Of a DNA stretch of 64,000 bases, positions 4,527 through 52,140 are shown in pieces (the first letter of the stretch is position 1; each line of letters begins with the position of its first letter). The translations under genes were made by a program, and so were the position numbers. The stretch is taken from contig DFOH01000041.1 in NCBI GenBank assembly GCA_002376545.1, positions 48,250 through 112,249 of the forward strand, given 5' to 3'. The stretch is from Firmicutes bacterium UBA3546. Lineage in GTDB: Bacteria > Bacillota > Clostridia > Tissierellales > Proteiniboraceae. The notes under the pieces are model-generated. The model did not search any database. It was given only the letters and a program-made list of their open reading frames with translations, and had not been told where the DNA came from.

Positions 4527-5825
4527 TTAAAATCCTTCAGGTACGATTTCTTTTAAAAGTAGGTCTTCATACGTTTCTCGTTTTACAATTACATACTCCC
4601 TGCCCTTACTTAGCAGCACTACTGCAGGTCTAGGTAATCTATTATAATTACTAGACATAGAGTAGTTGTATGCACCTGTACTTAGAACTGCTAGGATATC
4701 ACCCCTCTCAATTTTAGGTACCATTAAGTCCCATATAAGTATGTCACCTGTTTCACAGCATTTTCCTGCAATAGTCACTAGACTGTTGGGACTGAGATTA
4801 CATTTGTTTGCAACTATTGCACTGTATTTTGCACTATACAAGGCTGGTCTTGGATTGTCAGGCAGCCCACCATCTACGCTTACATAAGTTCTAACTCCAG
4901 GTATATCCTTAATTGTCCCTATTTCATAAAGAGTAACCCCTGCTTCTCCAACTATCCATCTGCCTGGTTCGATTATAATAGTTGGGATATCTAACCTTAG
5001 CTTGTTACAATATGAAATTACCTTTGCCATTATAGCATCTGTGTAGTAGGCAAGCTCCTTGACTTCATCAGCATTGTTATAGTATATTCCAAATCCTCCC
5101 CCAGTGTTAAGTTCTTTTGTAGCAAAACTAAATTCATCATAAAGCCATTTCATTAAGTTCAAAAGTATTTCAATAGCTACTGCATATCCGTCATTATCAT
5201 AGAGATTTGAACCTAAATGAAAATGAAACCCCATAAGCTCAATATTGTCTGACTGAAGGACTTTCAATACAGCTTCATCAATGATTCCTTTTACTAAAGG
5301 AATTCCAAATTTAGAATCCTTTTGTCCTGTTGATATGTACTTATGTGTTTTTCCCTCTACTCCTGGCGATACTCTAATTAGAATCTTCACCTTTTTTTTC
5401 TTTTGGGCTGCTATTTCATGTATCAAATCAATCTCATCAATATTATCAACTATTATTCGTCCTACATTGTTTTCTATAGCCATCTTCAGTTCTTCATAAG
5501 ATTTGTTATTTCCATGAAGCATTATATTTTCGGCAGGAAAGCGAGCCTTTAGAGCAGTATATAATTCTCCTCCTGATACAACATCAAGTAATAAGCCTTC
5601 CCTTTCTATAATTTTGCACATAGTTAGTGTAAGAAAAGCCTTACTCGCATATGCTGCCTTTGTATTTTTATATCTATGCAGAAAATTAGCTTTCAATTCC
5701 CAGCATCTTTGCCTTATTATATCTTCGGAAAGAATATACAATGGAGTACCATATTTTTTTGCCAAGCCTACAGTATCATGCCCTGCAAAAAATAGGTTAG
5801 AATCCTTAAATTCTAGTGTTTTCAT
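4527..5825 (-). CDS. lysA: PLP-dependent fold-type III decarboxylase, diaminopimelate decarboxylase-like
   Basis: 432 aa with motifs AYASKAF (PLP lysine), GGGFGI, EPGR and CETGD. It is the first gene of the opp operon. Confidence 0.65.
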   Translation of the reverse strand: MKTLEFKDSNLFFAGHDTVGLAKKYGTPLYILSEDIIRQRCWELKANFLHRYKNTKAAYASKAFLTLTMCKIIEREGLLLDVVSGGELYTALKARFPAENIMLHGNNKSYEELKMAIENNVGRIIVDNIDEIDLIHEIAAQKKKKVKILIRVSPGVEGKTHKYISTGQKDSKFGIPLVKGIIDEAVLKVLQSDNIELMGFHFHLGSNLYDNDGYAVAIEILLNLMKWLYDEFSFATKELNTGGGFGIYYNNADEVKELAYYTDAIMAKVISYCNKLRLDIPTIIIEPGRWIVGEAGVTLYEIGTIKDIPGVRTYVSVDGGLPDNPRPALYSAKYSAIVANKCNLSPNSLVTIAGKCCETGDILIWDLMVPKIERGDILAVLSTGAYNYSMSSNYNRLPRPAVVLLSKGREYVIVKRETYEDLLLKEIVPEGF

Positions 5826-11357: not shown

Positions 11358-11410
11358 CTAGTTAAACAGCCTTAGCTTGATGTATCAAGCTAAGGCTGTT
11401 TAAGGTTTTT
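11358..11410 (+). terminator. Orphan strong hairpin with T-run (plus-strand orientation)
   Basis: aaacagccttagcttgat-gt-atcaagctaaggctgttt followed by aaggttttt. No ORF of 60 aa or more lies upstream on the plus strand. Confidence 0.45.
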
Positions 11411-11603: not shown

Positions 11604-12863
11604 CTATTTTAAATATTCTACTATTCTGATAAGAGTATCATCACTACCAAAGCCGCCTGCTTTTGTAATTATTTGAACATTATACTTATTGCTAAGTATA
11701 TCTGATGCAACTACCCCTAAAAAAATCTCATTTTGTGGTACAATTCCATTGCACCCTAGTGCTTTTATAATTCCAAAGGCAGTATCTCCTCCAAAAATTA
11801 CTAAATGCCCTATAGTTGTCTTATCTAATACCTGTTTTACCATTTTTCCAATGTTTTCTGCTATCAATAAATGTGCTTTTTTGGGATTTATATTTAACTT
11901 TACTGAATAATCTAGACATTCTTTCACCTGACTTCTATCCTCAGCTGTCTTTATAATAATCTTGTCACCTTTATTAATCTTAGAGACAATATCATGTATG
12001 AAAGCCTCTCCCTCACTACTATTAAAATAGTCATGAGCTAGCAACTGTTTTGGTGTAAGAATTATACTTTTATATCCAAGCTTTTCTGAATACTTTACTT
12101 GGTTGATTGATGCTGTATTGACACTACCTGAGATGATTAAGCTACTCAATTCATATTGCTTAGTTTCTGCTTTGTCTCTTTTTAGCTCTAAAATTTCAGT
12201 CAATATTCCCGCAAACCCTGCACATCCCGCGGTTAACTTTAGCTTTTTTCTTTCCTTAAGCACTTTTCCTATTTTCATTAAATCCAAATCATTCTGAGCA
12301 TCAAAAACATAAATTGCCTGTTTATCTTCCTTTAGCTGGAATGTCTCGTAATCCTTTTGCTTTATTGTCACTACTTCAATATTTGACTGGGAATTAATAA
12401 TCTCCGCAATACTACTGTGTTTAGTAGGTTCAAAAGGGTCATTTGCATATGCAGTTTTATTTAATGGTTTTCCATCTACATAATGCTGACCATTTATTGT
12501 AGTTCGATTTGCCTTTGGAAATGATGGTATGAAGAATAATTCATTGCTGTTACATGCCTTGATTGCGCCAGCAAGCTCACTTCCTATATTACCTCTCAAG
12601 GTTGAATCTGTTTTCTTATAAATATACTTAATTCCATATTCCTTCGCTTTGTCTACAACCTTTTTAACTTTTAAAAATGCCTCAAAAGAATTTATATGCC
12701 TAGTTTCAATATCTAAAACAACTACTTGGATTTTTTCATCTAATAATTCATATTTAATATTTTCATCAGTACTTACAATCGTCGGGATATCTTTTTTTGA
12801 GAATTGAACCCCAGTGTCAAGCGCCCCAGTAAAATCATCTGCTATTACAAGTAGCTTAACCAT
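11604..12863 (-). CDS. DUF1537 four-carbon acid-sugar kinase family protein (OtnK/DtnK-like)
   Basis: N-terminus MVKLLVIADDFTGALDTGVQF is typical of the YgbK/OtnK family. RBS GAGGTGA. It is the last gene of the operon. Confidence 0.7.
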   Translation of the reverse strand: MVKLLVIADDFTGALDTGVQFSKKDIPTIVSTDENIKYELLDEKIQVVVLDIETRHINSFEAFLKVKKVVDKAKEYGIKYIYKKTDSTLRGNIGSELAGAIKACNSNELFFIPSFPKANRTTINGQHYVDGKPLNKTAYANDPFEPTKHSSIAEIINSQSNIEVVTIKQKDYETFQLKEDKQAIYVFDAQNDLDLMKIGKVLKERKKLKLTAGCAGFAGILTEILELKRDKAETKQYELSSLIISGSVNTASINQVKYSEKLGYKSIILTPKQLLAHDYFNSSEGEAFIHDIVSKINKGDKIIIKTAEDRSQVKECLDYSVKLNINPKKAHLLIAENIGKMVKQVLDKTTIGHLVIFGGDTAFGIIKALGCNGIVPQNEIFLGVVASDILSNKYNVQIITKAGGFGSDDTLIRIVEYLK

Positions 12864-12923: not shown

Positions 12924-13958
12924 TTAATCTACATCAATTATTATCTTTCCAGCATCGCCACTTTGCGCAAGCTGAATTGCCTCTTCTACTTTTTCTAATT
13001 TGAAGTGATGAGTAATTACTTTCTCTGGAGTCACCATTCCTGACCTAATAATCTCGTCAGCAGCATACCAGCTTTTATACATATGTCTTCCTGTAATTCC
13101 GTAAATTCTTGCTTCTTTATATATCACATCATTTACTAAATCCAATGAAGTCTTTTTTGAATGCAGTCCAATTAAAGACACCCATCCGCCTTTTCTCAAA
13201 GCTTTCAATCCAGAGTTTAAGGCAGCTTCACTTCCTGTAAGCTCTATTATGGCTCCTGCCCCCAATCCATTTGTTTTGCTAAGTACAATTTCCTCTAAAT
13301 TGTCAGTATTAGTATTTATTGTGTAGTCCGCACCCATTTGTCTAGCCATTCTTAGTCTAGGTTCATTTCTGTCAACAGCAAATACCTGTGAGGCTCCAAA
13401 TGCTTTTGCTACTTCTGTAGCAAAACATCCTATTGGTCCACATCCTAAGACTACTACTGGAACACCAGCCACTTGCTCAGCTTGTAAAGCATGTACCGCA
13501 ATGCCAAAAGGCTCATATATGGCTCCTATTGACGGATCTGTTGATTCGTCCAATTTCCATGCGCATGCTTCTGGCAGTACTGTATATTCAGCAAAAGCCC
13601 CATCAGTATGGACACCTATTATCTTCATATTATTGCATACATGCTGATTACCTGTTCTACATTGAAAGCAAATACCACAAGGTATGTGAGTCTCTGCACA
13701 CACCAAATCTCCTACTTTGAAGTTCTTAACTAAATTACCTACTTCAACAACTTCTCCACAATACTCATGCCCTATTACCATTGGATTCTTAGCTCCTACA
13801 TTCTCGCACCATTCATTCCAATGATAAAGATGTATATCAGTACCACAAATAGCAGCAGACTTAACTTTTACTAACATTTCATCAGGCTTAATTTTGGGTA
13901 CATCTATGTCTTTAAGAACTACTCCCTTACTTCTGTTAACTTTCATAATGGCTTTCAT
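12924..13958 (-). CDS. Zn-dependent medium-chain alcohol dehydrogenase, L-threonine 3-dehydrogenase-like
   Basis: MKAIMKV...ICGTDIHLY..GHEYCGEV..GCGPIG motifs. Start is preceded by GGAGGG; the track's upstream extension overlaps the pdxA stop. Confidence 0.7.
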   Translation of the reverse strand: MKAIMKVNRSKGVVLKDIDVPKIKPDEMLVKVKSAAICGTDIHLYHWNEWCENVGAKNPMVIGHEYCGEVVEVGNLVKNFKVGDLVCAETHIPCGICFQCRTGNQHVCNNMKIIGVHTDGAFAEYTVLPEACAWKLDESTDPSIGAIYEPFGIAVHALQAEQVAGVPVVVLGCGPIGCFATEVAKAFGASQVFAVDRNEPRLRMARQMGADYTINTNTDNLEEIVLSKTNGLGAGAIIELTGSEAALNSGLKALRKGGWVSLIGLHSKKTSLDLVNDVIYKEARIYGITGRHMYKSWYAADEIIRSGMVTPEKVITHHFKLEKVEEAIQLAQSGDAGKIIIDVD

Positions 13959-13974
13959 GTAATTGCCCTCCATT

Positions 13975-15012
13975 CTACCTTCTATTTTTAGCAAGCTTAG
14001 CTCCATAATCAATTGCATTTAACATGCTTTCGGCATTTGCTGTTCCTTTACCAGCTTTTCCAAAAGCAGTACCATGGTCTACAGATGTTCTTATAATTGG
14101 TAATCCAAGAGTTATATTGACTCCACTTACGGATTCCCACTTATTTTTTTCTTCGTCCCAATTAAATCCTACCACTTTGAGAGGTATGTGTCCTTGATCA
14201 TGATACATAGCAACGACGATATCATATTGTCCTCCCTTTGCTTTAGAAAATAATGTATCTGGAGGAACAGGTCCATCTACATTCATTCCTAGCCTAGTTG
14301 CTTCATTTATAGCTGGTTTTATCTCCTTTTCTTCTTCCCAACCAAACATTCCACTTTCCCCTGCATGAGGATTTAATCCCGCAACCCCTATTCTTGGATT
14401 ATCTATTCCAAATCCTCTCATTGTATCATAAGCTAATTCAATAACCTCTAATACTCTATCCTTTTTAACATTATCACATGCTTGTCTTAGTGAAACATGA
14501 GTAGATACATGAACAACTCTCAAATTTCCATCGGCAAGCATCATGGTATAATTCTTTGTTTTTGTGAAATTAGCATATATTTCAGTATGTCCATTATAAT
14601 GATACCCTGCTAAATTTAGTGCTTCCTTATTTAAAGGTCCAGTTACTGTCCCATCTACTTCTCCCGCCATTGCAAGGTCTATTGCCTTTTTTACAGCATC
14701 AAATGCTGCTTTCCCAGACATAGCTTGTACCTCTCCATGCTTTAATTGGTTAATATCCACATCCTTCAAATCTATTACATCGATTGCTCCATGTTCAAAT
14801 TTAGCATCTCTTACTTCATAGATAGGTCTAACTTTTAAGTTTAATCTGGCTATATGATTCACCGCATGCTCAATAATTTTTGCATCTCCTATTATCAGAG
14901 GTCTGCAAATATTATATATGCTTTCTTCTCCCAATGCTTTTACAGCTATCTCAGGCCCTATTCCTGAAGGATCTCCCATTGTAATTGCAAGTATAGGCAG
15001 TTGAACTTTCAT
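13975..15012 (-). CDS. pdxA: PdxA-family NAD-dependent 4-hydroxythreonate-4-phosphate dehydrogenase-like oxidative decarboxylase
   Basis: MKVQLPILAITMGDPSGIGPEI...AMYHDQGHIPLK with conserved His ligands. RBS GGAGGG. Confidence 0.75.
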   Translation of the reverse strand: MKVQLPILAITMGDPSGIGPEIAVKALGEESIYNICRPLIIGDAKIIEHAVNHIARLNLKVRPIYEVRDAKFEHGAIDVIDLKDVDINQLKHGEVQAMSGKAAFDAVKKAIDLAMAGEVDGTVTGPLNKEALNLAGYHYNGHTEIYANFTKTKNYTMMLADGNLRVVHVSTHVSLRQACDNVKKDRVLEVIELAYDTMRGFGIDNPRIGVAGLNPHAGESGMFGWEEEKEIKPAINEATRLGMNVDGPVPPDTLFSKAKGGQYDIVVAMYHDQGHIPLKVVGFNWDEEKNKWESVSGVNITLGLPIIRTSVDHGTAFGKAGKGTANAESMLNAIDYGAKLAKNRR

Positions 15013-15013
15013 G

Positions 15014-15679
15014 CTAACCCTCCAATTCTAATACATGTTTTAATTGTTCTACCCCAGAACGAGGGCTAGTAAGCACAGGTATTTTTATATGATTAAGATA
15101 TGGTAACAATATAGCCATGCTACCTTGAGCAAGTACGATAACATCGCTATTTTTAGCTACCTCTTCTATAGCCCCTAGTACCATTCTATTATGCTTCTCT
15201 CTATCTCCTTCTTCCATAAGCACTCTTATGGCACCATCTACTAGTACTTTATTAATGTCAACTTTTTTGTCTAATTCAGCAGCAGTCCTTTCAATAAGCC
15301 TCACACTAGGGTCAAGTGTAGTAGCTACTGTGCCAATTACAGATATTCTTCTCCCAATTTTCACTGCTTCTCTAGCCATAGGTTCATCAATCTTCAAATA
15401 TGGAATCGTCAACATATTTCTAGCTACATCTACAGCTTCTCCTACAGATGAGCATTGATTTAAAATAATGTGTGCACCCATTTCCTCAGCTTGTATAGCA
15501 TATATACATATTCTTTTAATAACAGACTCTGTAAGCCCTCCAGACCTCATAACATCTTCTAAGAGGCTGTCATCTATAATATTTATCATTTCAACTTCAG
15601 GTACTATTTCTTTAAATAATTCTTTTAAATCCATTACAGTAAGTAAATTTGTATGAATTACAGCAACCTTTTTTTTCAA
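15014..15679 (-). CDS. Asp/Glu/hydantoin racemase superfamily protein
   Basis: About 220 aa (KKVAVIHT...LNQCSSVG...VLAQGSMA). Probable TTG start after AAAGGTG. The longer track ORF overlaps the upstream gene. Confidence 0.5.
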   Translation of the reverse strand: MKKKVAVIHTNLLTVMDLKELFKEIVPEVEMINIIDDSLLEDVMRSGGLTESVIKRICIYAIQAEEMGAHIILNQCSSVGEAVDVARNMLTIPYLKIDEPMAREAVKIGRRISVIGTVATTLDPSVRLIERTAAELDKKVDINKVLVDGAIRVLMEEGDREKHNRMVLGAIEEVAKNSDVIVLAQGSMAILLPYLNHIKIPVLTSPRSGVEQLKHVLELEG

Positions 15680-15713
15680 TTTTCTCACACCTTTCTTTAA
15701 ACTTGTTTTGGAA

Positions 15714-16808
15714 CTAATAAGAGCCTCTCGCTGCAATCTCCCAGATACCTTCAATTTTTCCTTTCCTGACTACATAAATTTGATTATATAAGTTAGTAGT
15801 AGTGCAGCAATGGCTTGGCACTAGATGTACCTTATCACCTACTGCTAGTCCTATATATGGAGTTAATGCACGACATTTTGCATGCTCCTCAGCTAGCTTT
15901 ACTACCTCAACATTTTCTACTCCTTTGATTTTTGGAACCTCTCTCTCAGGTGATATGGATTTCATTCCTGTATTTAAAATAACTGTTTCATCATCAGGAG
16001 TGCTTACTACAGAAGCAAGAACTGTAAGAGATTGTTCAAAAGGTAATCCTACCTTTTCATAAGTTAAGTCCATGAAAATATATGAACCAGCCTGAATCTC
16101 CGTAATTCCTGGATATTCTCCAGCTATATCAAAGGTTCCGCTTCCAGCTCCACTTACTATTTCTACAGGCACTCCAGCCTTTCTTATAGCCTCAGCAGTA
16201 TCAACAAGATACTTATTAGCTTTTCTGCCTGTCTCTTGTCTTTCATGTCTATCTTTTATGAATACTGCATGTCCTTCATAGCCCATGATTCCAAGGAAAT
16301 TTATATTTTTTAGAGAATTTGCAAGCTTTGCTAGCTCAACTGCTGCTTCAGTGCTTCTTGCGCCACATCTTCCCATTCCTACATCAATCTCAATTATTAC
16401 TCCCAAGTCAACCCCAATTTCAAAGGATGCTTCTGATAATTTCTTTAAATTTTCAGTATCATCTACTGCAACCATCATATTAGCATATCGCGCTAAGCTA
16501 ACTAGACGTCTTATTTTATCTTCGTCCTTCACTTCATTGGCAATTAATATATTATCAAGACCTGAATTTACCATAACTTCTGCTTCACTTATGGTTGCAC
16601 AGCAGAGTCCTATTGCTCCTGATTTTATTTGTTGATGTGCTATCATAGGTGTTTTATGCGTTTTCGTGTGTGGTCTTAAACTTACTCCTTGTTTTAATAA
16701 ATATTGCATCATCTTCTTCATATTACTTTCAAATATATCAGCATCCAACACTAATGCTGGAGTTGGTATCAAATCTTGCGATAATCCTATAAGATAAGAA
16801 TTGTTCAT
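15714..16808 (-). CDS. DSD1-like fold-type III PLP enzyme (D-serine dehydratase-like / D-threonine aldolase family)
   Basis: RPHTKTHKTP PLP-lysine motif with an alanine-racemase-N-like domain. Start MNNSYL is preceded by GGAGGT. Confidence 0.65.
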   Translation of the reverse strand: MNNSYLIGLSQDLIPTPALVLDADIFESNMKKMMQYLLKQGVSLRPHTKTHKTPMIAHQQIKSGAIGLCCATISEAEVMVNSGLDNILIANEVKDEDKIRRLVSLARYANMMVAVDDTENLKKLSEASFEIGVDLGVIIEIDVGMGRCGARSTEAAVELAKLANSLKNINFLGIMGYEGHAVFIKDRHERQETGRKANKYLVDTAEAIRKAGVPVEIVSGAGSGTFDIAGEYPGITEIQAGSYIFMDLTYEKVGLPFEQSLTVLASVVSTPDDETVILNTGMKSISPEREVPKIKGVENVEVVKLAEEHAKCRALTPYIGLAVGDKVHLVPSHCCTTTNLYNQIYVVRKGKIEGIWEIAARGSY

Positions 16809-16826: not shown

Positions 16827-18248
16827 TTATATTCTAGGACGTCCTCCATAGAACCATCCTGATTCAAGGTCTACCACCTTTGCCTTAAGTCCACGCTTCT
16901 TAACAGCATTAACTCCTAGTTCAGTTGTTAATACTGTAGTGCCTTTTCCTAACACCACTCCATCTAACATTATGATATTTCCTGAACATACTGCACCGTA
17001 TGCTCTTCCGCTTGTTCCATCAAGTATTGTAATATCTGCATCTGCACCAACTCCAAGATGTCCTTTATCTTTAAGACCAAAAATTTTAGCAGGATTAATA
17101 CTTGTCTTTGTTACAAACTCTTCCCATGTAAGCATATCCATTCTTACAAGAGCTGTTCCTTTCTCTACAATGAAATTTCTTGGAATAGAGCCACCATCAG
17201 TTGATATTGCATCTACTATGAATCTGCCAGATTTAGCTTTTTGTGTTGCTAGCAAAAATCTAGTCGATGCAGGCGTAACAGGAAAAGTGCATGTTACATC
17301 TGTTCCTTCCTTATCAAAATATTCTATCCCTTCCTTACCTGTAAGTCTTAAATTGTCGTTTCCAACATGACATACCACCGACGCCCATCCATCTAGTATA
17401 GCCTGTCTAAGACCTTTCTCTGTTCCTTCATATCCTCCCATGCTTAAAGAATTTTTAACTCCATTAGATTCAGGCATTCCATCAGAACACTTAGCTGGTG
17501 TTCCACTAAATACAGAAAGATATGATTCACTGAAAATATTTGGATTATCCTCTAAAATTCTCAGTGCCTCCAATGTTTCTTCAATGGGATCACCTAATAC
17601 TTGTCCACGACAATAAGAATTTACATGTACTAGGTCCATAGAAAATCCCTTAGCTATATCTACAGCATCCTTAAAGCTATTAAAATTCCCAACTCCATTT
17701 TTTGTAGTTCCTACATGAAAGGCTACATATGCTTTTTTATGATTTGCAACTTCTACTACTCTTTGTGTTGCCTCTGGAGTCATAGGATAGTGACCACCTA
17801 ATAGCTTCATACCAATTGCTCCTTCATCCAAGCTTTTATCAATAAGCTCACTTATCTCTGTTTTTGTTGGAGCTATTCCACTAATGTTCCAACCTGGTCT
17901 TATCATCTGTAAACAAATCATATTCATTCCAGTACCATTATTGATAGAAAAATCATAGAATTCGTGAAGTGGACCTCCACAATCCATTGCAGTAACTGTT
18001 CCTGCTCTTGCTAGCATACTCATAGCAGCTTGTCCGCCTTTGCCCGTAAAGCCAGTATGTACATGCATGTCTATGATTCCTGGAACAATAGTCTTTCCCT
18101 TAGCATCGAGTACTTTTATGCCCTTATTAGTATTTATTTCTTCAGCAACCTCAACCACTTTGCCTCCATCAATCCCAATATCTCTTTGACCATGTATTTT
18201 ATTTTCCGGGTCTATAACAGTTCCATTTTTTATTATTAAATCGAACAT
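16827..18248 (-). CDS. Metal-dependent amidohydrolase family protein
   Basis: N-terminal ...GIIDMHVHTGF (HxH metal motif), 473 aa. RBS AGGAGG. Confidence 0.65.
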   Translation of the reverse strand: MFDLIIKNGTVIDPENKIHGQRDIGIDGGKVVEVAEEINTNKGIKVLDAKGKTIVPGIIDMHVHTGFTGKGGQAAMSMLARAGTVTAMDCGGPLHEFYDFSINNGTGMNMICLQMIRPGWNISGIAPTKTEISELIDKSLDEGAIGMKLLGGHYPMTPEATQRVVEVANHKKAYVAFHVGTTKNGVGNFNSFKDAVDIAKGFSMDLVHVNSYCRGQVLGDPIEETLEALRILEDNPNIFSESYLSVFSGTPAKCSDGMPESNGVKNSLSMGGYEGTEKGLRQAILDGWASVVCHVGNDNLRLTGKEGIEYFDKEGTDVTCTFPVTPASTRFLLATQKAKSGRFIVDAISTDGGSIPRNFIVEKGTALVRMDMLTWEEFVTKTSINPAKIFGLKDKGHLGVGADADITILDGTSGRAYGAVCSGNIIMLDGVVLGKGTTVLTTELGVNAVKKRGLKAKVVDLESGWFYGGRPRI

Positions 18249-18276: not shown

Positions 18277-19404
18277 TCAATCCAAGTCTCCATTAAAAGC
18301 TTTAACATAGATTGATTTTATGCTATCCTTACTTAAATCAATTGGATTATTTTTAAGAAGTCTTTCTTGCATCATGGCCTCTTCTAAAACAATGTCAATA
18401 TCCTCCTCTGGAATATTAGCGTCTTTTAGTCTGTAAGGAACATTTATCTTTCTAAATCCATCTATAATAGGATTTATTAAACCTCTTATATCAGAAACCT
18501 CAATAGCTTTTTTCAGAGTATTTACTTTTTCAACTTTTAAAGAATCAAGATACAACATAACATAGGGATACAGCATTGCTACTCCTTGGCTATGTGAAAT
18601 TCCGTATTTAGCCAATGGATAGGCAAGAGCATGTACACTGCACGTACCTGCATTTGTTAATGCTGCACCGCCAAGTAATGAACCTAATGCCATATCTTGT
18701 CTAGCTACTAGATTATCGCCATTATCAATAGCTGCATGTAGAGATTTATATATAAGTTTGGTACCTTTAATTGCCAATTCATCTGACCACAAGGAGCCAT
18801 TCTTAGATAAAAAGGATTCTACACAATGTGCTAATGCATCTATCCCTGTCAATGCAGTAAGTTTTGGTGGAAGAGTAATCATTAGTTCTGGGTCGACTAT
18901 AGCTATTTCTGGTATCATATGTCTGCTTACTACTGCTTTTTTATTTTTTTCTTTATCGAGGAAAATAGCATTTGGAGTAGCTTCAGAACCGGTGCCACTT
19001 GTTGTAGGTATCATAATCATTGGGATACCATGTTTGGAAAAGCTAATATTACTTAAATCGTTTATTTTTGTACATCCATTTCCCTTTACCCAAGCTACTA
19101 ATTTTGCAGTATCTAATACACTTCCACCACCAAGTCCTATACATATGTCTGCGTCGAATCCTTCGGCTAATTTTAAGCATTCATTAACAACCTCAATATC
19201 TGGTTCTCCTTTAAATGAGGAAAAAGTCAATACTTCTAGCCCTATAGATGTTAATTTAGTTTCTAAGTGTGCTCTAAAAGGTCTATCACTTAAAAGCAGT
19301 ACTCTTTCAGCATTCATTTGCTCGATTTCCGTACAAACTTGATTATACGCTCCTGCTCCAAAAATTACTCTGCCTGGAGTATTTAAGCTTATTAAATTAT
19401 CCAC
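18277..19404 (-). CDS. Iron-containing (group III) alcohol dehydrogenase
   Basis: GGGSVLDTAK motif and conserved His residues. GTG start after GGGGGT. Confidence 0.7.
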   Translation of the reverse strand: MDNLISLNTPGRVIFGAGAYNQVCTEIEQMNAERVLLLSDRPFRAHLETKLTSIGLEVLTFSSFKGEPDIEVVNECLKLAEGFDADICIGLGGGSVLDTAKLVAWVKGNGCTKINDLSNISFSKHGIPMIMIPTTSGTGSEATPNAIFLDKEKNKKAVVSRHMIPEIAIVDPELMITLPPKLTALTGIDALAHCVESFLSKNGSLWSDELAIKGTKLIYKSLHAAIDNGDNLVARQDMALGSLLGGAALTNAGTCSVHALAYPLAKYGISHSQGVAMLYPYVMLYLDSLKVEKVNTLKKAIEVSDIRGLINPIIDGFRKINVPYRLKDANIPEEDIDIVLEEAMMQERLLKNNPIDLSKDSIKSIYVKAFNGDLD

Positions 19405-19461: not shown

Positions 19462-20961
19462 TTAGCTAAGTGGTTCAGCTTTTTTCTTATTCGCATTAAT
19501 TTGATTCTTAATAAGCGGCCAAACTATAGTTAATACTGCTATAAGTAAAAAAGCTAATGAAACAGGACGTGTTAGAAATGGTAAAAAGCTTCCATCTGAA
19601 TAAGTTAAACCACGTCTTAAATTGACTTCTACCATAGGTCCTAATATAAAACCTAAAATCATAGGGCTTATGGAGATTTTTGCAATTTCAAGTATTATAC
19701 CTACTGCTGCGAATATAAGCATAATCCAGATATTAAATGTAGAATTGTTACTTGCAAAGGCTCCAATGAAGCTCATGACCATTAACGCAGGGTATAGATA
19801 ATGATATGGCACCTTTAATAGCCTCGGGAATAATCTCATACCCCCAAATTGAAGTATTAATGTTAAAATAGCAGATAATGCTGCTGCTGCAAATACTATA
19901 TAAACTACTGATGGATTGTTTACAAATAGTAGTGGTCCTGGTTGAATACCATGTATCATTAGTCCCCCAAGAAGAATTGCAGTTACACTGTCTCCAGGTA
20001 TCCCCATAGTAACCATAGGTATTATTGCACCACCAACTGATGCGTTATTTGATACCTCGCTTGCCCAAACTCCATCTACGCATCCCTTTCCAAATTCTTC
20101 TGGACTCTTAGATGCTTGTTTTGCCTGACCATATGCAACCATGTTTGATAGTCCACTTCCCATGCCAGGTAAAAAACCAATCCATAATCCAATCATAAAT
20201 GAACGAATAATATTCCAGCCATTACTTATGACTTCTTTCATTGTAATTCCAAAGCCAGAAACTTTTAATGATACATCGGGTTGCTGCTGTTGGCCTGTAC
20301 CAAAATCCTTTACAATTTGTTTTATGGCAAATATACCAAGTATCATGGCCAATATGTCTATACCACCACTAAGCATAACATTTCCAAATATAAATCTTGG
20401 ACCTCCGTCAATAGGAGCCATCCCAACTGAGCTTAGTCCTATACCAATAAAAGCACCTGCAAGTCCTCGGAACATATCTCCTTTAGATAAAACAGCTACA
20501 AGCACTAAGGCGCAAGTACATAGAGAAAAGAATTCCCATGGTCCAAGCTTTAATGCAACTTCTGCGATAAATGGACTTAATATTGCTGCAATAATAACAC
20601 TTAAAAATGTACCTATAAATGATGCTACTATACCTGTTCCAAGTGCTTTAACTGCCTGACCTTTTTTAGTCATTGGGTAAGCATCAAAGCATGTAGCAAT
20701 TGATGATGGAGTTCCTGGAATACCAATTAGTGTAGCTGAAATAAATCCACCTGACACTCCTCCTATCCAAATACCTACTAAAAGAGCCATACCCATTTCT
20801 GGAGACATTCCAAATGTTAAAGGTAATAACAAGGAAACCCCTGTAACTGCTGTCAAGCCAGGTATTGCCCCAAATATTATTCCTACTATAGTACCAAATA
20901 GAAGCAATAAAAAGGTTACTGGCTGGAGTAACTGTCCTATACTTGAAATAATATAATCCAT
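19462..20961 (-). CDS. tctA: Tripartite tricarboxylate transporter large permease
   Basis: 499-aa polytopic membrane protein with TctA-family sequence, downstream of tctC and tctB. Confidence 0.75.
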   Translation of the reverse strand: MDYIISSIGQLLQPVTFLLLLFGTIVGIIFGAIPGLTAVTGVSLLLPLTFGMSPEMGMALLVGIWIGGVSGGFISATLIGIPGTPSSIATCFDAYPMTKKGQAVKALGTGIVASFIGTFLSVIIAAILSPFIAEVALKLGPWEFFSLCTCALVLVAVLSKGDMFRGLAGAFIGIGLSSVGMAPIDGGPRFIFGNVMLSGGIDILAMILGIFAIKQIVKDFGTGQQQQPDVSLKVSGFGITMKEVISNGWNIIRSFMIGLWIGFLPGMGSGLSNMVAYGQAKQASKSPEEFGKGCVDGVWASEVSNNASVGGAIIPMVTMGIPGDSVTAILLGGLMIHGIQPGPLLFVNNPSVVYIVFAAAALSAILTLILQFGGMRLFPRLLKVPYHYLYPALMVMSFIGAFASNNSTFNIWIMLIFAAVGIILEIAKISISPMILGFILGPMVEVNLRRGLTYSDGSFLPFLTRPVSLAFLLIAVLTIVWPLIKNQINANKKKAEPLS

Positions 20962-20981
20962 TTTTTCCCCTCCTTAAGTCT

Positions 20982-21428
20982 TTAGAATAATTTTCCTGAT
21001 GGTAACATCACCAGTAACACCTTTTCGAAAATTAAATATACCGAGCCTGTAATACATAATGAAAATATTATTGCTGTCTTATAAATCTTCATATTTCCAT
21101 TCATGACAATTATTGAAGCAAATACTGCAATAGGTGTAGCAATTAAGAACCCAAGTGTTACAAGTCCTATAGCGTATAATAATATTACACCTGACATTAT
21201 ACACAGGCGTTTCCAGCCCTCTGGAGTTAAATATACCTTTGCCTTCTCTGCTGTCTTTTCAAGCATTAACCCTATTCCACATATTATCAACCCAATACCA
21301 GAGATATATGGAAATAATCTAGGCCCTACATCATTTTCAAGATTAGGGTTAGGAATCTGGCTAGCTAGTATTGTAATTATAATTCCTATGATTAATAACA
21401 TGATTCCTGTTTTTTTGTTACTGCTCAT
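20982..21428 (-). CDS. tctB: Tripartite tricarboxylate transporter small permease
   Basis: About 148-aa 4-TM protein between tctC and tctA. Start MSSNKK is preceded by GGAGTGA. Confidence 0.6.
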   Translation of the reverse strand: MSSNKKTGIMLLIIGIIITILASQIPNPNLENDVGPRLFPYISGIGLIICGIGLMLEKTAEKAKVYLTPEGWKRLCIMSGVILLYAIGLVTLGFLIATPIAVFASIIVMNGNMKIYKTAIIFSLCITGSVYLIFEKVLLVMLPSGKLF

Positions 21429-21509
21429 ATTATCACTCCATTTCATTTATTATTTATATATTAGAATCAACTCTTAATAGAGTTGATTCTAATATATTTA
21501 ATAGCACTG

Positions 21510-22523
21510 CTATTTCTTTAATCCTAAATTTTCTGCAACAGCTTCTATAGAATTAAATTCTGCTTCTAAATATGCTTCAGTTTCTTCTAAATCTCTATAT
21601 TTATAGCTTTGTCCAATATTGTTAAGTTTGTCCATAAAATCTTTATCAGCTTCCATTTCTGCAAAAAGTCCATTTATTTTTTTAGCTATTTCATCAGGTA
21701 GTCCTTTTGGAGCATACATAGCATGCATAGTCGGGAGAATTACGTTATAGCCTTGCTCGACTGCCGTTGGAAAATCAGGTGCTAATATATCTCTTTCTTC
21801 TGAAGCTACTGCGAGAACCTTTACTTTATTAGCTTCTACATATTGTGAAGCAGCTCCTACTGTTGCTTGGATAAGATCTAGATGACCGCCTTGAAGTGAA
21901 GCTAACTTTTCTGCTTCTCCACCTGAGTCAACCATTTTAAATTCTACGCCTGCCTCATTCATCAATATACCTGCGATAAATTGACTAACTCCACCATACT
22001 GAACACCAAATATATATTTGTTAGGATTTTGTTTTGCATCTTGAACTAGTTCTTCTAAAGTATTCCATGGAGCATCTGCTCTCACTGATATTGTTTGACT
22101 TACATGTGGCATTGTAGCAATTGGTCTAAAATCTTTGTATGAATAAGCATATGTTCCACCGTGATAATTGCATTGTAAAAGTGTGTGATGGAAAAGAATT
22201 GTGTAGCCATCTGGTTCAGCATTTCTTACGGTTTCTGCTCCTACTGAACCTCCACCACCATCTTGGTTAACCACAACTACAGGTTGTCCTAATTTTCCTT
22301 GCATATATTGTGCAACTAAACGAGCAGCAGCATCTGTAGCCCCCCCTGCTTTTGTAACGCATATAAGCTGAATTGGCTTTGTAGGATAATTAACTTCAGA
22401 ATTTGAAGCATTATCATTGACTCCTTCAGAATCATTGTTTGTAACAGGCTGATTTGATGAGCATGCTGTAATTGAAATACCTAATAATGCAATTGCTAAA
22501 AATAAAGCTAATTTCTTTTTCAT
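21510..22523 (-). CDS. tctC: TctC/Bug-family tripartite transporter substrate-binding lipoprotein
   Basis: Lipoprotein signal ...LLGISITACSS and Bug-family length. Confidence 0.7.
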   Translation of the reverse strand: MKKKLALFLAIALLGISITACSSNQPVTNNDSEGVNDNASNSEVNYPTKPIQLICVTKAGGATDAAARLVAQYMQGKLGQPVVVVNQDGGGGSVGAETVRNAEPDGYTILFHHTLLQCNYHGGTYAYSYKDFRPIATMPHVSQTISVRADAPWNTLEELVQDAKQNPNKYIFGVQYGGVSQFIAGILMNEAGVEFKMVDSGGEAEKLASLQGGHLDLIQATVGAASQYVEANKVKVLAVASEERDILAPDFPTAVEQGYNVILPTMHAMYAPKGLPDEIAKKINGLFAEMEADKDFMDKLNNIGQSYKYRDLEETEAYLEAEFNSIEAVAENLGLKK

Positions 22524-22618: not shown

Positions 22619-23671
22619 TTATCTAGAATAAACAGAGCACCTATTAAGTGTCTCAGTATTCACTAGTTTAGAAGCTATGTCTATAGCTTTTTCAAGAACT
22701 TTTGTGTCACCTGTTTTTTTTGCAATCCTATTGATTGTAGATTCATGACTGACTGCTAATCCAATCATTGAGCCTCCTAAAGCTATTTCTATTTCATTAA
22801 TTGAGTTCCACCTATTACTTTTATCATCAAACTCGAAGCCAATAGCTTCCATCTGAATATTGCTCCTTTCATGATACATATCCACTATTGCATCATATTC
22901 TCCTGATGCAGCTTTTAAATAGATACTATCTGGTGAAATAGGCCCATATGCAAGAATTCCTTCTCTATAGGATGCTTCAATGGCACTTAATATTTCATCA
23001 CTGATATTAGTGTCCTTATATTCTCCAGAATAAAATATATCTGCTACAGCGACTCTAGGTGCATCTATATTCATTTTTTTTAAGATTTCATTTGTAAGCT
23101 TAATCATTTCATGTATTCGATTTTGAGTTATATTTTTAAATACAGAATCACTAAAGCTCTCAAAATAAACATATGCAATTCTAAGAGAACCTCTTATTAT
23201 CATTACAGAATAAACATCTGACTCTTCATCGTTCAGGAAAACCTTTTCAATTCCTCTATGAAAACTACATAACAATTTATTATTATAATTATTACTTGCA
23301 GGTCCAAGAATAAATGCATCAAGGCTTTTATTAGCACATAATTCAATAGCCTTTCTGCCATAAGTTAAACTCATCTCGTCAGAACTCGTATTATCATCAT
23401 TATTAAAATAGTCCTTTGAAGAATCCATGTTTATATCTATTAGATTAAGTACTCCTTCTTTAAAACACGCTTCAGAAGGCTCCTTAATTGTATTCAATAT
23501 CAAAGATGAGCCAGTAAAGTTCAATGCATTTATAACTATATCTAAGCTTCCTATAACTACGAATCCTAAATCCATGTAAAGAGATGCTTTTTCCATAGCT
23601 TTAACTACTATCTGTGCACCAGCTCCCAGAGAATCTCCTATTGTAATTCCAATTATTTTTCTGCCCACCAA
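22619..23671 (-). CDS. Divergent PdxA-family paralog lacking canonical metal-binding histidines
   Basis: GITIGDSLGAGAQI aligns with PdxA GDPSGIGPEI, and DMYHERSNIQME aligns with AMYHDQGHIPLK. Two of the three His-ligand positions are replaced. Probable TTG start 6 nt after AAGGAGTG. It is the first gene after the sigma-54 promoter. Confidence 0.6.
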   Translation of the reverse strand: MVGRKIIGITIGDSLGAGAQIVVKAMEKASLYMDLGFVVIGSLDIVINALNFTGSSLILNTIKEPSEACFKEGVLNLIDINMDSSKDYFNNDDNTSSDEMSLTYGRKAIELCANKSLDAFILGPASNNYNNKLLCSFHRGIEKVFLNDEESDVYSVMIIRGSLRIAYVYFESFSDSVFKNITQNRIHEMIKLTNEILKKMNIDAPRVAVADIFYSGEYKDTNISDEILSAIEASYREGILAYGPISPDSIYLKAASGEYDAIVDMYHERSNIQMEAIGFEFDDKSNRWNSINEIEIALGGSMIGLAVSHESTINRIAKKTGDTKVLEKAIDIASKLVNTETLNRCSVYSR

Positions 23672-23728
23672 TGTAAGCACTCCTTTTTTAATCAAATTAG
23701 TTAATGTATAGAGTTACTTATTTTATAT

Positions 23729-23744
23729 GCGAAAACTATGCCAA
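23729..23744 (-). promoter_or_regulatory. Candidate sigma-54 (-24/-12) promoter
   Basis: Minus-strand TTGGCATAGTTTTCGC has GG-N10-GC spacing. TGGCAT matches TGGCAC and TTCGC matches TTGCA. It lies about 45 nt upstream of the first operon gene and downstream of the enhancer-binding-protein gene. Confidence 0.55.
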
Positions 23745-23823: not shown

Positions 23824-23847
23824 ATGCGTTCCATTATTGAAACGCAT
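23824..23847. promoter_or_regulatory. Inverted repeat, candidate enhancer (UAS) site
   Basis: ATGCGTT-N10-AACGCAT about 90 bp upstream of the sigma-54 promoter. Confidence 0.35.
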
Positions 23848-23904
23848 TTATTAAAAATTTAAATAAATGCTTAAAATTCAGTTTTTATCAAGTATACAAA
23901 CAAA

Positions 23905-23938
23905 GAAACATAAGTTCCATTAATGGAACTTATGTTTC
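23905..23938. terminator. Perfect 17-bp-arm palindrome overlapping the regulator stop codon
   Basis: gaaacataagttccatt|aatggaacttatgtttc followed on the minus strand by tttgtttg. It is either a terminator for the regulator gene or a protein-binding site. Confidence 0.5.
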
Positions 23939-25825
23939 TTTGTTGAAACCATATTTATTCATTTTTCTCCAGAGAGTTGTCCTGCTTATGTTTAACTCCT
24001 TAGCTGTTTTTTTAATACTCCACCCATTATTATCCAATACTTTAAGTATTGCTTTTCTTTCTGCTATATCTAGCGTTGTCACTTCATTTTTACCCTCATC
24101 ATGTACTTCTCTTACTATATGTTTCTCATATAATCCATAAAGATCATTTACAGTAACTATAGCTCCATTTTTTAAAACCACTAATCTTTCGATTACATTC
24201 TCAAGCTCTCTTATATTCCCGGGCCAAGAGTATTTTTTAAGCTCATTTATAGCACTGTTTTCAATACCTACCATTTTACACCCAGTCTTTCTTACTGATT
24301 TATTAATAAATACTTCAATAAGATATGGAATATCTTCAGTTCTTTCCCTTAAAGGAGGTAGATGTAATGATAATACATTAAGACGATAATATAAGTCTTC
24401 TCTAAATTTACCATTATTAACTTCTTCAAGTAAGTTCTTATTTGTTGCAGAAATAATTCTTACATCTAGAGGAATTACTCTATCATCTCCAATTCTACGA
24501 ACTACCTTTTCTTGTAGTACTCTCAATAGTCTCGCCTGTAATTTTAATGGCATCTCTCCAATCTCATCTAAAAACAACGTTCCCTGATGCGCCATTTCAA
24601 ACAAACCTGGTTTACCCCCTTTTTTTGCCCCTGTGAAAGCGCCCTCATTGTATCCAAAAAGTTCACTCTCCAAGAGGGATTCGGGTACTGCTGCGCAGTT
24701 AATTGCTACAAAAGGTTCCTCTCTCCTTAAACTATAGTTATGTATACTTTGAGCTAATACCTCTTTACCTGTTCCTGTTTCTCCGCTTATTAAAATTGTA
24801 GAATTAACAATAGCAAACTTTTTTGCATTTTCGCTTAATTCCTTCATCTTTTCATTAACAGTTTTCATATCATCAAATGTATATCTGGCAGAGTTCCCTT
24901 TTAAATACAACTCCCTTCGAACCTTTTCTTCTGCTTTCTGTATTTTATGGGCTTCCTGAATTGTTATTATTACTCCAACTAATTTTTTCTTACTAATAAC
25001 AGGAATTATATCTTTTACAATTAGACCTGACGATACGTAACTTACTTCTCCAAGTAATGGTTTGCTAGTCTTAAAAATATCATCAGTTAATAATCCTGGC
25101 AACATATCATTTGCATAATGTCCTATTATCTCCTCAGCATTTGTATTGAGAATTCTTTCGGCAATAGGATTTATGTATTTAACTTTTCCTAATGCATCTA
25201 GTGTAATGATTCCGTCATGTACAAAGTTGATTAAAGTCCTAATTTCCTCTGTTCTCTCCCTTTCTCTGTTTACCATTTCTATAGTGTTATATGCTTCTCT
25301 TATAGCTTGAATAATAGCTTCTTTACCCGAATGAACTAAAACAGTAAAAAAACCATTTTGAGAAGCTTTTCTTACAGCAATAGTGTCTCCAACAACCATT
25401 TTTATCTCTTCATCGTTCATTCTTATAATTACATCATCCACATCTTTATCAGAACCTATCAAAAATTCTTTTAAATCTATCTTCAAAATATCTCTTAAGG
25501 TTCCTACACCATAAATAATGTTCTTATAGCCAACTACACCAATAGAAGCACTAAATCTCATAGCATTATTAATTGCTCTCATTAAGTCATATCCAGTAAC
25601 AGCAATTTCTATTACAGGAACCTTGACAGCTTCTCTAATTGCTATGGCGGTACCTCCGCGGCTTATTATTGCTTGTGCTCCATTGTCTATGGCATCTAGA
25701 GCTTCTTTTACCCCTTCTTCCATATCTCCTATTCTTATATCCAATTGCTCATTAAATTCATTACATACTTCTTCCCCTAATTCTGCCAACTTGGGGAACG
25801 GTGCAATTAATGCTATCTTACCCAC
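23930..25825 (-). CDS. Sigma-54-dependent transcriptional activator (PrpR-N-like sensory domain, PAS, AAA+, Fis HTH)
   Basis: ESELFGYNEGAFTGAKKGG (GAFTGA sigma-54 contact motif), Walker A GETGTGKE and a C-terminal HTH. GTG start after GGGGGA. Confidence 0.8.
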   Translation of the reverse strand: MGKIALIAPFPKLAELGEEVCNEFNEQLDIRIGDMEEGVKEALDAIDNGAQAIISRGGTAIAIREAVKVPVIEIAVTGYDLMRAINNAMRFSASIGVVGYKNIIYGVGTLRDILKIDLKEFLIGSDKDVDDVIIRMNDEEIKMVVGDTIAVRKASQNGFFTVLVHSGKEAIIQAIREAYNTIEMVNRERERTEEIRTLINFVHDGIITLDALGKVKYINPIAERILNTNAEEIIGHYANDMLPGLLTDDIFKTSKPLLGEVSYVSSGLIVKDIIPVISKKKLVGVIITIQEAHKIQKAEEKVRRELYLKGNSARYTFDDMKTVNEKMKELSENAKKFAIVNSTILISGETGTGKEVLAQSIHNYSLRREEPFVAINCAAVPESLLESELFGYNEGAFTGAKKGGKPGLFEMAHQGTLFLDEIGEMPLKLQARLLRVLQEKVVRRIGDDRVIPLDVRIISATNKNLLEEVNNGKFREDLYYRLNVLSLHLPPLRERTEDIPYLIEVFINKSVRKTGCKMVGIENSAINELKKYSWPGNIRELENVIERLVVLKNGAIVTVNDLYGLYEKHIVREVHDEGKNEVTTLDIAERKAILKVLDNNGWSIKKTAKELNISRTTLWRKMNKYGFNKET

Positions 25826-43100: not shown

Positions 43101-43606
43101 GGTTATATTAAGTAATTTTCTAATAAATGATTATTGATTAGAATAGGGACTATCACTATTACTAGCAGATGTTTTAGTAATAGAATATATATACTTATTC
43201 AATGTAAGCAGTATTTCACCTAGTTACTATTAAAAAAGGTTATTAGTTCCCTAGAGTTATAGCGTAACAGAACTTTGCCAAAAAGGGTAAAATATTTCTA
43301 AATATATTTATAGAAAACTAGTATCTATTTTCGTTATCTTGTTCATTTTTTAATGCAATTCTTTTTTTAATAATTTCTTAGTTGTGTCAACTATTTTATA
43401 ACCTAAATCCTTTATAAATATAAGTTCTGAAAATGTATATGAATTATAAGAATTATAGCCAAGGGAACCATGTACAAAATTTTTTTAGAATACTAAACAT
43501 GTGAAATTTTATCTCTTATTCTAGACTCGAATTATATAATATTTTATCACAAATTTTCTAAAAAGTTAGTAATAGATTTCTATACTAGAATTAGAAATAG
43601 ATTAAG

Positions 43607-43637
43607 TTTCCCTGTTTTTTGGTACAAAACAGGGAAA
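43607..43637 (-). terminator. Terminator after the M20 peptidase gene
   Basis: tttccctgtttt-ttggtac-aaaacagggaaa 12-bp stem. Confidence 0.5.
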
Positions 43638-43699
43638 TCATTAGATTAAATAAAACTATTCTTAGAACCTAATTATATATAATAAATCTGTTTAATTTT

Positions 43700-44950: not shown

Positions 44951-45153
44951 AAAAGTTCCCTCCTTATATATTGTATTTAGACATAGTTTTATAACATCTA
45001 AAAATACTAATATTTTATTTTTGTTTTTTATTTAGGATATCCTAACGCTAAAATTGAACTAGAGTAATTGGCAAAAGATAGCTCTTTGATTCCTGAAAAG
45101 CTATTAGTTTATTATCTTAATAGCATGCTCATAGATTTTAACCTAATAATCTA

Positions 45154-52116: not shown

Positions 52117-52140
52117 GTTTGTACCTCCTTTCAGTTACGA

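Follow-up and report, generated by a model that had tools for sequence, protein, structure and literature searches.

The window analysed here, i.e. the whole stretch of 64,000 nucleotides of contig DFOH01000041.1 from Firmicutes bacterium UBA3546, encodes at positions 22619-23671 a degenerate protein of the PdxA family, in the same operon as an intact PdxA. Enzymes of the PdxA/PdxA2 type oxidise and decarboxylate a 4-phospho-hydroxy acid, in a reaction that depends on NAD and on a metal. We consider it probable that the degenerate protein is a full-length pseudoenzyme of PdxA fold, issued from a PdxA subfamily marked by an insertion, for which this reaction is no longer possible and which would act by binding. 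The best reading is that of a lineage-restricted pseudoenzyme, in which the folded N-terminal domain is what selection keeps. Two properties expected of a pseudoenzyme were found: homology to an enzyme with loss of the catalytic residues, and retention under purifying selection, the latter in one pair of sequences.

The gene and its ribosome-binding site were placed as follows, from the open reading frame (ORF) with its translation and from reading of the sequence, respectively:

22619..23671, minus strand: degenerate PdxA-like gene, 350 amino acids, TTG start
23680..23684, minus strand: ribosome-binding site AGGAG, 8 nucleotides 5' of the TTG start

The mechanical ORF is slightly longer (23695 to 22619, 358 amino acids). 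The likely start is nevertheless the TTG at 23671, yielding a product of 350 amino acids; it agrees with the start of the database protein P0001, identical to this product in length and sequence. P0001 is present on five contigs, including that of NCBI and those of two independent sequencing runs, and the degenerate gene is therefore not an assembly artefact. Proteins clustering at 90% identity or more with the products of neighbouring genes of the window bear the names Proteiniborus sp. or Tissierellales. The earlier note on this DNA had given the right coordinates; it is the minus strand that carries the gene, and many stop codons interrupt the plus strand at 22619-23671. The search of Rfam revealed no RNA element within or before the gene.

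Membership of the PdxA family is apparent from both the profile match and the two-domain alpha/beta fold. The window protein scores 99.1 bits against Pfam PdxA (PF04166; E=3.9e-28, gathering cut-off 27, profile positions 6-286), and by BLASTP it is 29% identical over 336 residues (E=4e-50) to the intact PdxA encoded at 13975-15012. The start codons of the two genes are 8.66 kb apart, in agreement with the canonical PdxA announced 8.7 kb downstream, and the motifs previously aligned are indeed seen: GDSLGAGAQI versus GDPSGIGPEI and DMYH versus AMYH. With the NCBIfam PdxA and PdxA2 profiles the protein remains below every cut-off by a factor of 3-6 (TIGR00557, 92.8 versus 290; NF002992, 141.3 versus 470; NF002891, 98.6 versus 583). 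The AlphaFold2 model keeps the two-domain fold (predicted local distance difference test 73, predicted template modelling score 0.78). Confidence is low at, among other segments, residues 127-152 and 310-319, i.e. the sites of the lost LNK/GHTE and DHGT motifs described below. Foldseek matches this model with a probability of 1.0 to 2HI1, 4JQP, 6E85 and 1PS6 (E 1e-20 to 1e-25, template modelling score 0.66-0.74); the structures of PdxA, PdxA2 and TphB come first and the phosphotransacetylase (PTA) group after them.

To number the residues, E. coli PdxA was added to the alignment. The zinc ligands of E. coli PdxA are reportedly H166, H211 and H266, a description attributed to Sivaraman and colleagues in 2003. 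This identity is supported by the near-invariance of the three columns, at which histidine is found in 137, 138 and 142 of 145 full-length representatives, and by the statement that PdxA-family histidines coordinate metal (PMC12978539). In the window protein H166 (VSTHV) is replaced by E171 and H211 (NPHAGE) by Y214, while H266 (MYH) is kept as H267. Thus one of three metal histidines is left, in place of the three found in PdxA/PdxA2 enzymes. The earlier note had counted three lost histidines: those of VSTHV and NPHAGE are indeed gone, but the second His of HDQGH is uninformative, since this position is variable across homologues and is Leu270 in E. coli PdxA, so that its loss means nothing. 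The one histidine that it saw retained, in YHERSN, is H267, aligned to H266 of E. coli. The comparison of the site residues with E. coli PdxA that it had proposed, by alignment or by an AlphaFold model, was carried out and places E171, Y214 and H267 at the metal positions.

The earlier note had also considered that the histidines might be present but shifted, which would make the protein an ordinary PdxA/PdxA2 enzyme hidden by misalignment. Nothing beyond the Pfam family match speaks for this, and its chance is practically nil. No shifted histidine is seen in any of three independent alignments, one made by HMMER against PDB chains and two by MAFFT, of 11 and of 162 sequences. In all of them the ligand columns are occupied by E, Y and H, between well-aligned flanks (APRVAVADI.. 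and ..YDAIVDMYH). No His is found at three residues or less from E171 or Y214, and all equivalog cut-offs are missed by the factor given above. We consider the misalignment refuted by these alignments.

The loss extends beyond what had been noted, to the LNK, GHTE and RTSVDHGT motifs and to most of the columns conserved in the family. GPLNKE has become GPASNN, in which LNK is lost, GHTE has become GIEK and IRTSVDHGTA has become IGLAVSHEST; none of the three active-site motifs of PdxA/PdxA2 enzymes is thus present. In terms of single residues, H136 and T137 of GHTE correspond to I141 and E142, D267 to E268, and R292, S294 and D296 to G304, A306 and S308, while D247 and H297 are kept as D248 and H309. 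In PdxA, H136 hydrogen-bonds the substrate and the active site is formed by both monomers of a tight dimer (PMC10471632). Among 91 intact PdxA representatives 73 columns are conserved at 80% or more. The window protein covers 71 of them and deviates at 42, the highest value of all the divergent PdxA-family members examined (17-31 of 73 for the others).

Relatives were sought among 5.8 billion proteins by word-indexed search and among 1.84 billion representatives by exhaustive comparison with HMMER. The top matches were all intact PdxAs, and no relative more than 30% identical was found in either collection, with the exception of P0081. This protein of 245 amino acids, encoded at locus L003, is 38% identical over the first 156 residues of the window protein. 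It has no equivalent of residues 160-257, an in-frame deletion of about 100 residues that spans the whole segment with two of the ligand positions, and its C-terminus is weakly similar. Taken alone, P0081 is not recognisable as a PdxA (no Pfam match; best match to an intact PdxA at E=0.03), and AlphaFold2 gives a confident fold for residues 1-123 only. L003 is a metagenomic bin with the following order: PrpR_N activator, palindrome, sigma-54 promoter, degenerate gene, tctCBA, Fe-alcohol dehydrogenase, amidohydrolase, pyridoxal phosphate (PLP) enzyme, PdxA and DUF1537 kinase. No third member was found with a profile of the window protein and P0081, and no relatives were returned by two genome-contig scans (query the window protein, then TctC) or by a metagenome scan with the motifs LILN[TI]IKE and LNLIDI. 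The metagenome scan with a TctC profile gave one close locus, L012, in which the upstream gene is an unrelated cyclic nucleotide monophosphate (cNMP)/HD regulator. The related operons of L004, L005, L009 and L012 are all without the degenerate gene and carry unrelated genes in its place.

To compare evolutionary rates, identity and the nonsynonymous (dN) and synonymous (dS) substitutions per site were determined for pairs of orthologues of the window and L003. For nine neighbouring orthologues the identity is 63-83%, dN 0.11-0.24, dS 0.9-1.8 and dN/dS 0.09-0.18. For the first 156 codons of the degenerate gene the corresponding values are 38%, 0.50, 1.18 and about 0.42, and for the remainder 28%, 0.78, 1.09 and about 0.7. 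The degenerate gene thus evolves 2-5 times faster than its operon neighbours and is by far the least constrained gene of the operon. The replacement of GHTE is common to both proteins (EKVFLN in the window protein and in P0081), indicating that the catalytic loss is older than the split between the window and L003.

The ORF is intact in the two lineages, although they are separated by a dS of about 1. Neutral simulation of an AT-rich frame of 350 codons left it open in less than 0.4% of the cases after 0.1 substitutions per site; from 0.2 upwards no frame survived. When stops were avoided, neutral simulation at d=0.9-1.2 led to an expected identity of 15-21% (maximum 0.32 in 300 runs), to be compared with the 38% observed. 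Second codon positions are 0.70 conserved versus 0.49 for third positions, both lineages have kept 34 residues that are derived with respect to PdxA, and in the N-domain the two branches are of similar length. The excess over the neutral maximum, the codon positions and the derived residues argue for selection on the protein sequence and not just on an open frame. As judged from these two sequences, purifying selection, weak but real, is thus shown to act on the N-terminal alpha/beta domain (about residues 1-156), and this domain, alone in remaining recognisably similar in P0081, is the unit under selection.

The origin of the degenerate copy can be approached from three sides. The window protein and P0081 carry an 11-residue insertion FxxDxxxNxWxS (FEFDDKSNRWNS), the marker of one PdxA subfamily to which the intact PdxA of the operon belongs. 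With HMMER the canonical PdxAs are ranked first, and the best single-domain intact match of the window protein is the PdxA of the window (154 bits). At locus L008, where TctC is 62% identical to that of the window, an intact PdxA is encoded directly upstream of tctC, i.e. at the position of the degenerate gene; this head PdxA and the window's own intact PdxA share 80% identity. The shared insertion, the HMMER ranking and the arrangement of L008 together fit an origin from the operon-type PdxA subfamily: likely, a duplication or rearrangement left two pdxA copies, of which the head copy then degenerated. The neighbour-joining tree groups the window protein with P0022 and P0049 (78% bootstrap). 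We discounted this grouping, which joins the longest branches and is probably due to long-branch attraction, while HMMER ranks canonical PdxAs first.

The surroundings of the gene, from the activator gene to the end of the operon, comprise the following features:

23930..25825, minus strand: sigma-54-dependent activator PrpR_N/PAS/AAA+/HTH_8, 631 amino acids (Pfam and NCBIfam), 68% identical to the L003 orthologue
23897..23931, minus strand: terminator-like hairpin AAGTTCCAT-TA-ATGGAACTT with T-rich tail, 3' of the activator gene (read from the sequence)
23828..23843, minus strand: imperfect palindrome GTTTCAATAATGGAAC, about 85 nucleotides upstream of the sigma-54 promoter
23728..23743, minus strand: predicted sigma-54 promoter TGGCATAGTTTTCGCA, -24 GG / -12 GC (consensus TGGCAY-N5-TYGCW)
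19462..22523, minus strand: tripartite tricarboxylate-type transporter, with tctC 21510-22523, tctB 20982-21428 and tctA 19462-20961
18277-19404, minus strand: Fe-alcohol dehydrogenase
16827-18248, minus strand: amidohydrolase
15714-16808, minus strand: PLP enzyme like D-Ser-dehydratase/3-hydroxy-D-aspartate aldolase
15014-15754, minus strand: Asp/Glu-racemase-like protein
13975..15012, minus strand: intact canonical PdxA paralogue (Pfam 367 bits; TIGR00557 353.6, cut-off 290), all catalytic motifs intact
12924-14006, minus strand: threonine-dehydrogenase-like Zn-alcohol dehydrogenase (NCBIfam NF003808 391 bits, cut-off 380)
11604-12863, minus strand: DUF1537 four-carbon acid-sugar kinase with SBD_N and NBD_C domains, last operon gene
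11362..11403, strand unassigned: strong 19-bp hairpin terminator (terminator scan), downstream of the kinase gene, operon end

TctC was identified by Pfam, and TctC, TctB and TctA were taken from precomputed annotations on the identical contig L001; the four genes from the Fe-alcohol dehydrogenase to the racemase-like protein were assigned by Pfam, NCBIfam and the gene calls on L001.

From this arrangement, the degenerate gene is the first cistron of a predicted 11-gene sigma-54-dependent operon. The description as first operon gene thus holds for the window, in the sense of the first cistron behind the predicted sigma-54 promoter, and so does that of two PdxA-like proteins in one operon, the second being the intact PdxA of 13975-15012. 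The promoter TGGCATAGTTTTCGCA is the only match to TGGCAY-N5-TYGCW in the 64 kb; yet the consensus is loose, 19 of 100 shuffles giving at least one match, and the weight of the prediction rests on its conservation at L003, the syntenic locus, where it reads TGGCATTAAAATTGCA. L003 likewise has the hairpin, which divides the activator gene from the sigma-54 transcription unit. The palindrome is unique in the window (0.01 chance matches expected) and occupies the same place in L003; we infer that it is a candidate binding site of the activator. The adjacent PrpR_N-type activator would control the 11-gene operon, and in both the window and L003 the degenerate gene is found beside this activator and inside its regulon. 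Within the operon lies the PdxA/DUF1537 module, which is known for the catabolism of four-carbon acid sugars (as cited in PMC9997740 and PMC10580937).

The fast evolution of the gene could also be that of a decaying relic of the duplicated or rearranged pdxA, without a protein function of its own and lost piecemeal, the 100-codon deletion of P0081 being one step. The frame would then be kept open for indirect reasons, e.g. to avoid polarity or destabilisation of a long operon mRNA. We regard such a decay as possible but rather unlikely. The gene is the fastest-evolving of its operon (dN 0.5-0.8 versus 0.11-0.24) and has a very narrow distribution (two lineages only), its orthologue has lost a large internal stretch in frame and ends in a C-terminal part that AlphaFold2 is unable to fold, the intact paralogue of the operon makes it redundant, and the operons of L004, L005, L009 and L012 manage without it: all this is what a relic would look like. 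It is less easily reconciled with an identity of the N-domain (38%) that none of 300 neutral simulations without stops reached at d>=0.9 (maximum 0.32), with the conservation of second over third codon positions (0.70 versus 0.49) and with the 34 derived residues kept in both lineages. Several points nevertheless weigh against the pseudoenzyme that we favour. The dN/dS is high (0.4-0.7) and, statistically, the C-terminal part comes close to neutrality; with dS near saturation these ratios are rough. There are two members only in very large databases, and the conservation statistics come from one pair. The loss of about 100 internal residues in P0081, together with a fold confined to residues 1-123, fits a gene on its way out. 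The window protein still has D248, H267 and E268, its Gly-rich loop (GDSLGAGAQ) is intact in part, and some residual binding of ligand or metal may persist. Finally, the mode of action proposed below is one that we only infer.

Changed chemistry had been put forward by the earlier note alongside a pseudoenzyme and a regulatory subunit. The pseudoenzyme is the option that stands, given the loss of the metal site, the phospho-substrate site and most of the residues conserved in the family, the deletion in P0081 and an evolution that is fast but not neutral; changed chemistry appears unlikely. In an active enzyme of altered chemistry E171 and Y214 would form, with H267, D248 and E268, a new metal site (e.g. 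for Mg, Mn or Fe), and the lost phosphate-binding residues would point to a non-phosphorylated substrate, as in TphB-type members. The window protein is full-length, its middle domain is closer to the intact, canonical PdxAs (31-35% identity) than its N-domain (21-27%), and its G-x-G loop is partly kept (GDSLGAGAQ). It has in common with P0049, which is encoded beside a Rieske dioxygenase, six same-residue replacements including H166E, and the tree groups it with P0022 and P0049 as described above. But this grouping is probably an artefact of the longest branches, P0022 keeps all three histidines, and Zn is bound in a cis-dihydrodiol dehydrogenase of the family, 4ATY (PMC12978539). Moreover, the 42 conserved positions lost out of 71 exceed those of any other family member examined, the orthologue P0081 deletes the entire putative metal site, and the raised dN/dS is atypical of an enzyme in a catabolic operon. 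We therefore give little credit to altered chemistry, and retain the pseudoenzyme.

As such, the degenerate protein would have a binding and not a catalytic role, accessory or regulatory to the operon, with the catalytic paralogue PdxA or the DUF1537 kinase as its likeliest partners. PdxA is an obligate dimer whose active sites are composite; were the degenerate protein to pair with the intact PdxA, both sites would be altered. P0081, which lacks much of the dimer-forming domain, argues against this: heterodimerisation with PdxA cannot be the conserved function of both proteins. The protein may otherwise associate with the DUF1537 kinase, for which homologues of fusion length give a context. 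Ten homologues of 720-789 amino acids have their PdxA domain at either end (P0018, P0025, P0026, P0029, P0037, P0070, P0076, P0084, P0104 and P0118); judged by their length they are probably DUF1537 kinase-PdxA fusions, which suggests that the two are joined in many organisms and would imply physical proximity of both activities. Alternatively, by analogy with other systems, the protein might exert feedback modulation on the PrpR_N sigma-54 activator. A regulatory role is plausible and fits the conserved first-cistron position behind a sigma-54 promoter.

Such feedback partners, encoded in the regulon of their own sigma-54 activator, are PspA (product of the first psp gene, which inhibits PspF), NifL for NifA and HrpV for HrpS. 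Like the PspA gene relative to PspF, the gene of the window is predicted to be first in a sigma-54-dependent operon and lies beside its activator; there is no homology between the window protein and PspA-type partners, and the likeness is one of analogy only. For a protein of this type of fold working by binding alone, MaeB (6ZN9, 9KRW) may serve as a precedent by analogy, since the PTA domain of this hybrid malic enzyme is non-catalytic. The domain, which belongs to the same broad fold group and has taken on a regulatory function (PMC12978539), is among the weaker Foldseek matches of the window protein. It differs in belonging to another family (phosphotransacetylase-like) and in being fused to its own enzyme, so that only the fold is common.

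The window protein has the fold and family of PdxA (E. coli 1PS6/1PTM) and of PdxA2, the D-threonate-4-phosphate dehydrogenase (Salmonella 2HI1, Klebsiella 6E85), and its operon, as with PdxA2, contains a DUF1537 kinase, together with an intact PdxA. Unlike these enzymes, it is devoid of two of three metal histidines, of H136/T137, of the LNK lysine and of R292/S294/D296, and it remains under the curated cut-offs; in contrast to its intact paralogue, its gene evolves several times faster. With the TphB-type cis-dihydrodiol dehydrogenases/decarboxylases (4ATY, 8ZHY) it shares the PdxA fold, the absence of phosphate-binding residues and, for the TphB-type representative P0049, some same-residue replacements. 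It differs from them in that Zn is recorded in 4ATY (PMC12978539) and Rieske oxygenase genes are adjacent in the case of P0049, whereas in the window two of the histidines are lost and no Rieske oxygenase genes are found in the operon. Our search of the literature found no paper linking PdxA to pseudoenzymes or to Clostridiales sigma-54 regulons, and a review of these regulons does not mention such proteins (PMC6615313).

Nine other members of the 145 representatives lack at least one ligand histidine. For P0054 (374 amino acids; L024 3936-5102, L025 1900-3024) the three histidine positions are N, Y and R, and GHTE is lost. This protein has the same type of 11-residue insertion as the window protein; its gene is the first behind a perfect sigma-54 promoter match, TGGCACCCTTATTGCT, and adjoins that of a PrpR_N-PAS activator 39% identical to the one of the window. 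A Peripla_BP_6 binding-protein gene follows directly, with no gap: the transporter is here of the ATP-binding cassette type and not TctABC as in the window. P0054 is also less degenerate (22 of 73 conserved columns lost), its best relatives being the intact PdxAs of L003 (244 bits) and of the window (237 bits). Common ancestry of the two degenerate proteins was rejected, as they are 25% identical with only two shared replacements and the window protein ranks 160th of 164 for P0054; the losses of catalytic residues are, as far as the sequences tell, probably independent. Histidine-less PdxA-like proteins might then be recurrent non-catalytic first genes of PrpR_N/sigma-54 operons, acting as co-sensors, feedback modulators or gatekeepers of PdxA/DUF1537. 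We hold this generalisation to be unlikely at present: two occurrences (window/L003 and P0054) are a hint and not a pattern.

Altered metal ligands occur in other PdxA-family lineages as well. P0090 and P0075 have Cys at the position of H166 and, at that of H211, Ala and Cys respectively; they adjoin PfkB kinases (locus L026). P0131 (L027) has G, Y and Q at the ligand positions and adjoins a UxaA/GarD-like dehydratase. None of the contexts of P0090, P0131, P0049 and P0022, the last on a short contig, is linked to sigma-54. The PdxA family thus seems to hold several unexplored non-canonical branches. Two further observations concern other PdxA homologues. In P0013 (453 amino acids), the top intact homologue, about 100 residues from the C-terminal half of PdxA are repeated internally in tandem (EEITPAIEAAKAEG...VDHGTDFYHAGK repeated), through either a true duplication or an error of assembly. 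L006 is a tctCBA locus of more distant kind, in which SBD_N and NBD_C of the DUF1537 kinase are found on two ORFs and PdxA is encoded as a fragment of 133 amino acids (coordinates 525-1873 and 5143-5544), reflecting either decay of the PdxA/kinase module or poor assembly.

Elsewhere in the window, a glycine/sarcosine/betaine reductase locus lies on the minus strand at 51029-53436, with a GrdE-like gene (52141-53436) and the selenoprotein gene GrdB (51067-52116). An Rfam SECIS_4 element (51029-51066, 64.8 bits) directly follows the in-frame stop at which the GrdB ORF ends; the gene is thus read through at a UGA-selenocysteine codon and appears truncated in ORF lists. A complete type II Wadjet anti-plasmid system (JetA2-JetB2-JetC2-JetD2) occupies 55030-63063 on the minus strand; its jetC is found as two ORFs, 59047-60435 (profile positions 2-452) and 56291-58948 (497-1362), which suggests a disrupted or frameshifted gene. 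Two major facilitator superfamily (MFS) transporter genes, 41759-43015 and 45154-46410 on the minus strand, belong to one cluster at 90% identity or more and flank an M20 peptidase (43700-44950); this pair within 41759-46410 looks like a recent local duplication.

The degenerate protein is an extreme, lineage-restricted variant in a well-known enzyme family, and its importance is moderate unless the association with sigma-54 is general. Genes of the PdxA family are routinely annotated as 4-hydroxythreonine-4-phosphate dehydrogenase; the window protein cannot be this enzyme, and here both the label and any pathway reconstruction that follows from it would be wrong. The case is that of a bacterial enzyme duplicate between loss and re-use, with the intact paralogue in the same operon, an orthologue reduced nearly to the N-domain alone, and residual selection that can be measured. 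If the link with PrpR_N and sigma-54 is true, it would point to an unrecognised control of catabolic operons in anaerobic Firmicutes and, should the histidine-less first genes prove recurrent, to a new class of enzyme-derived regulators.

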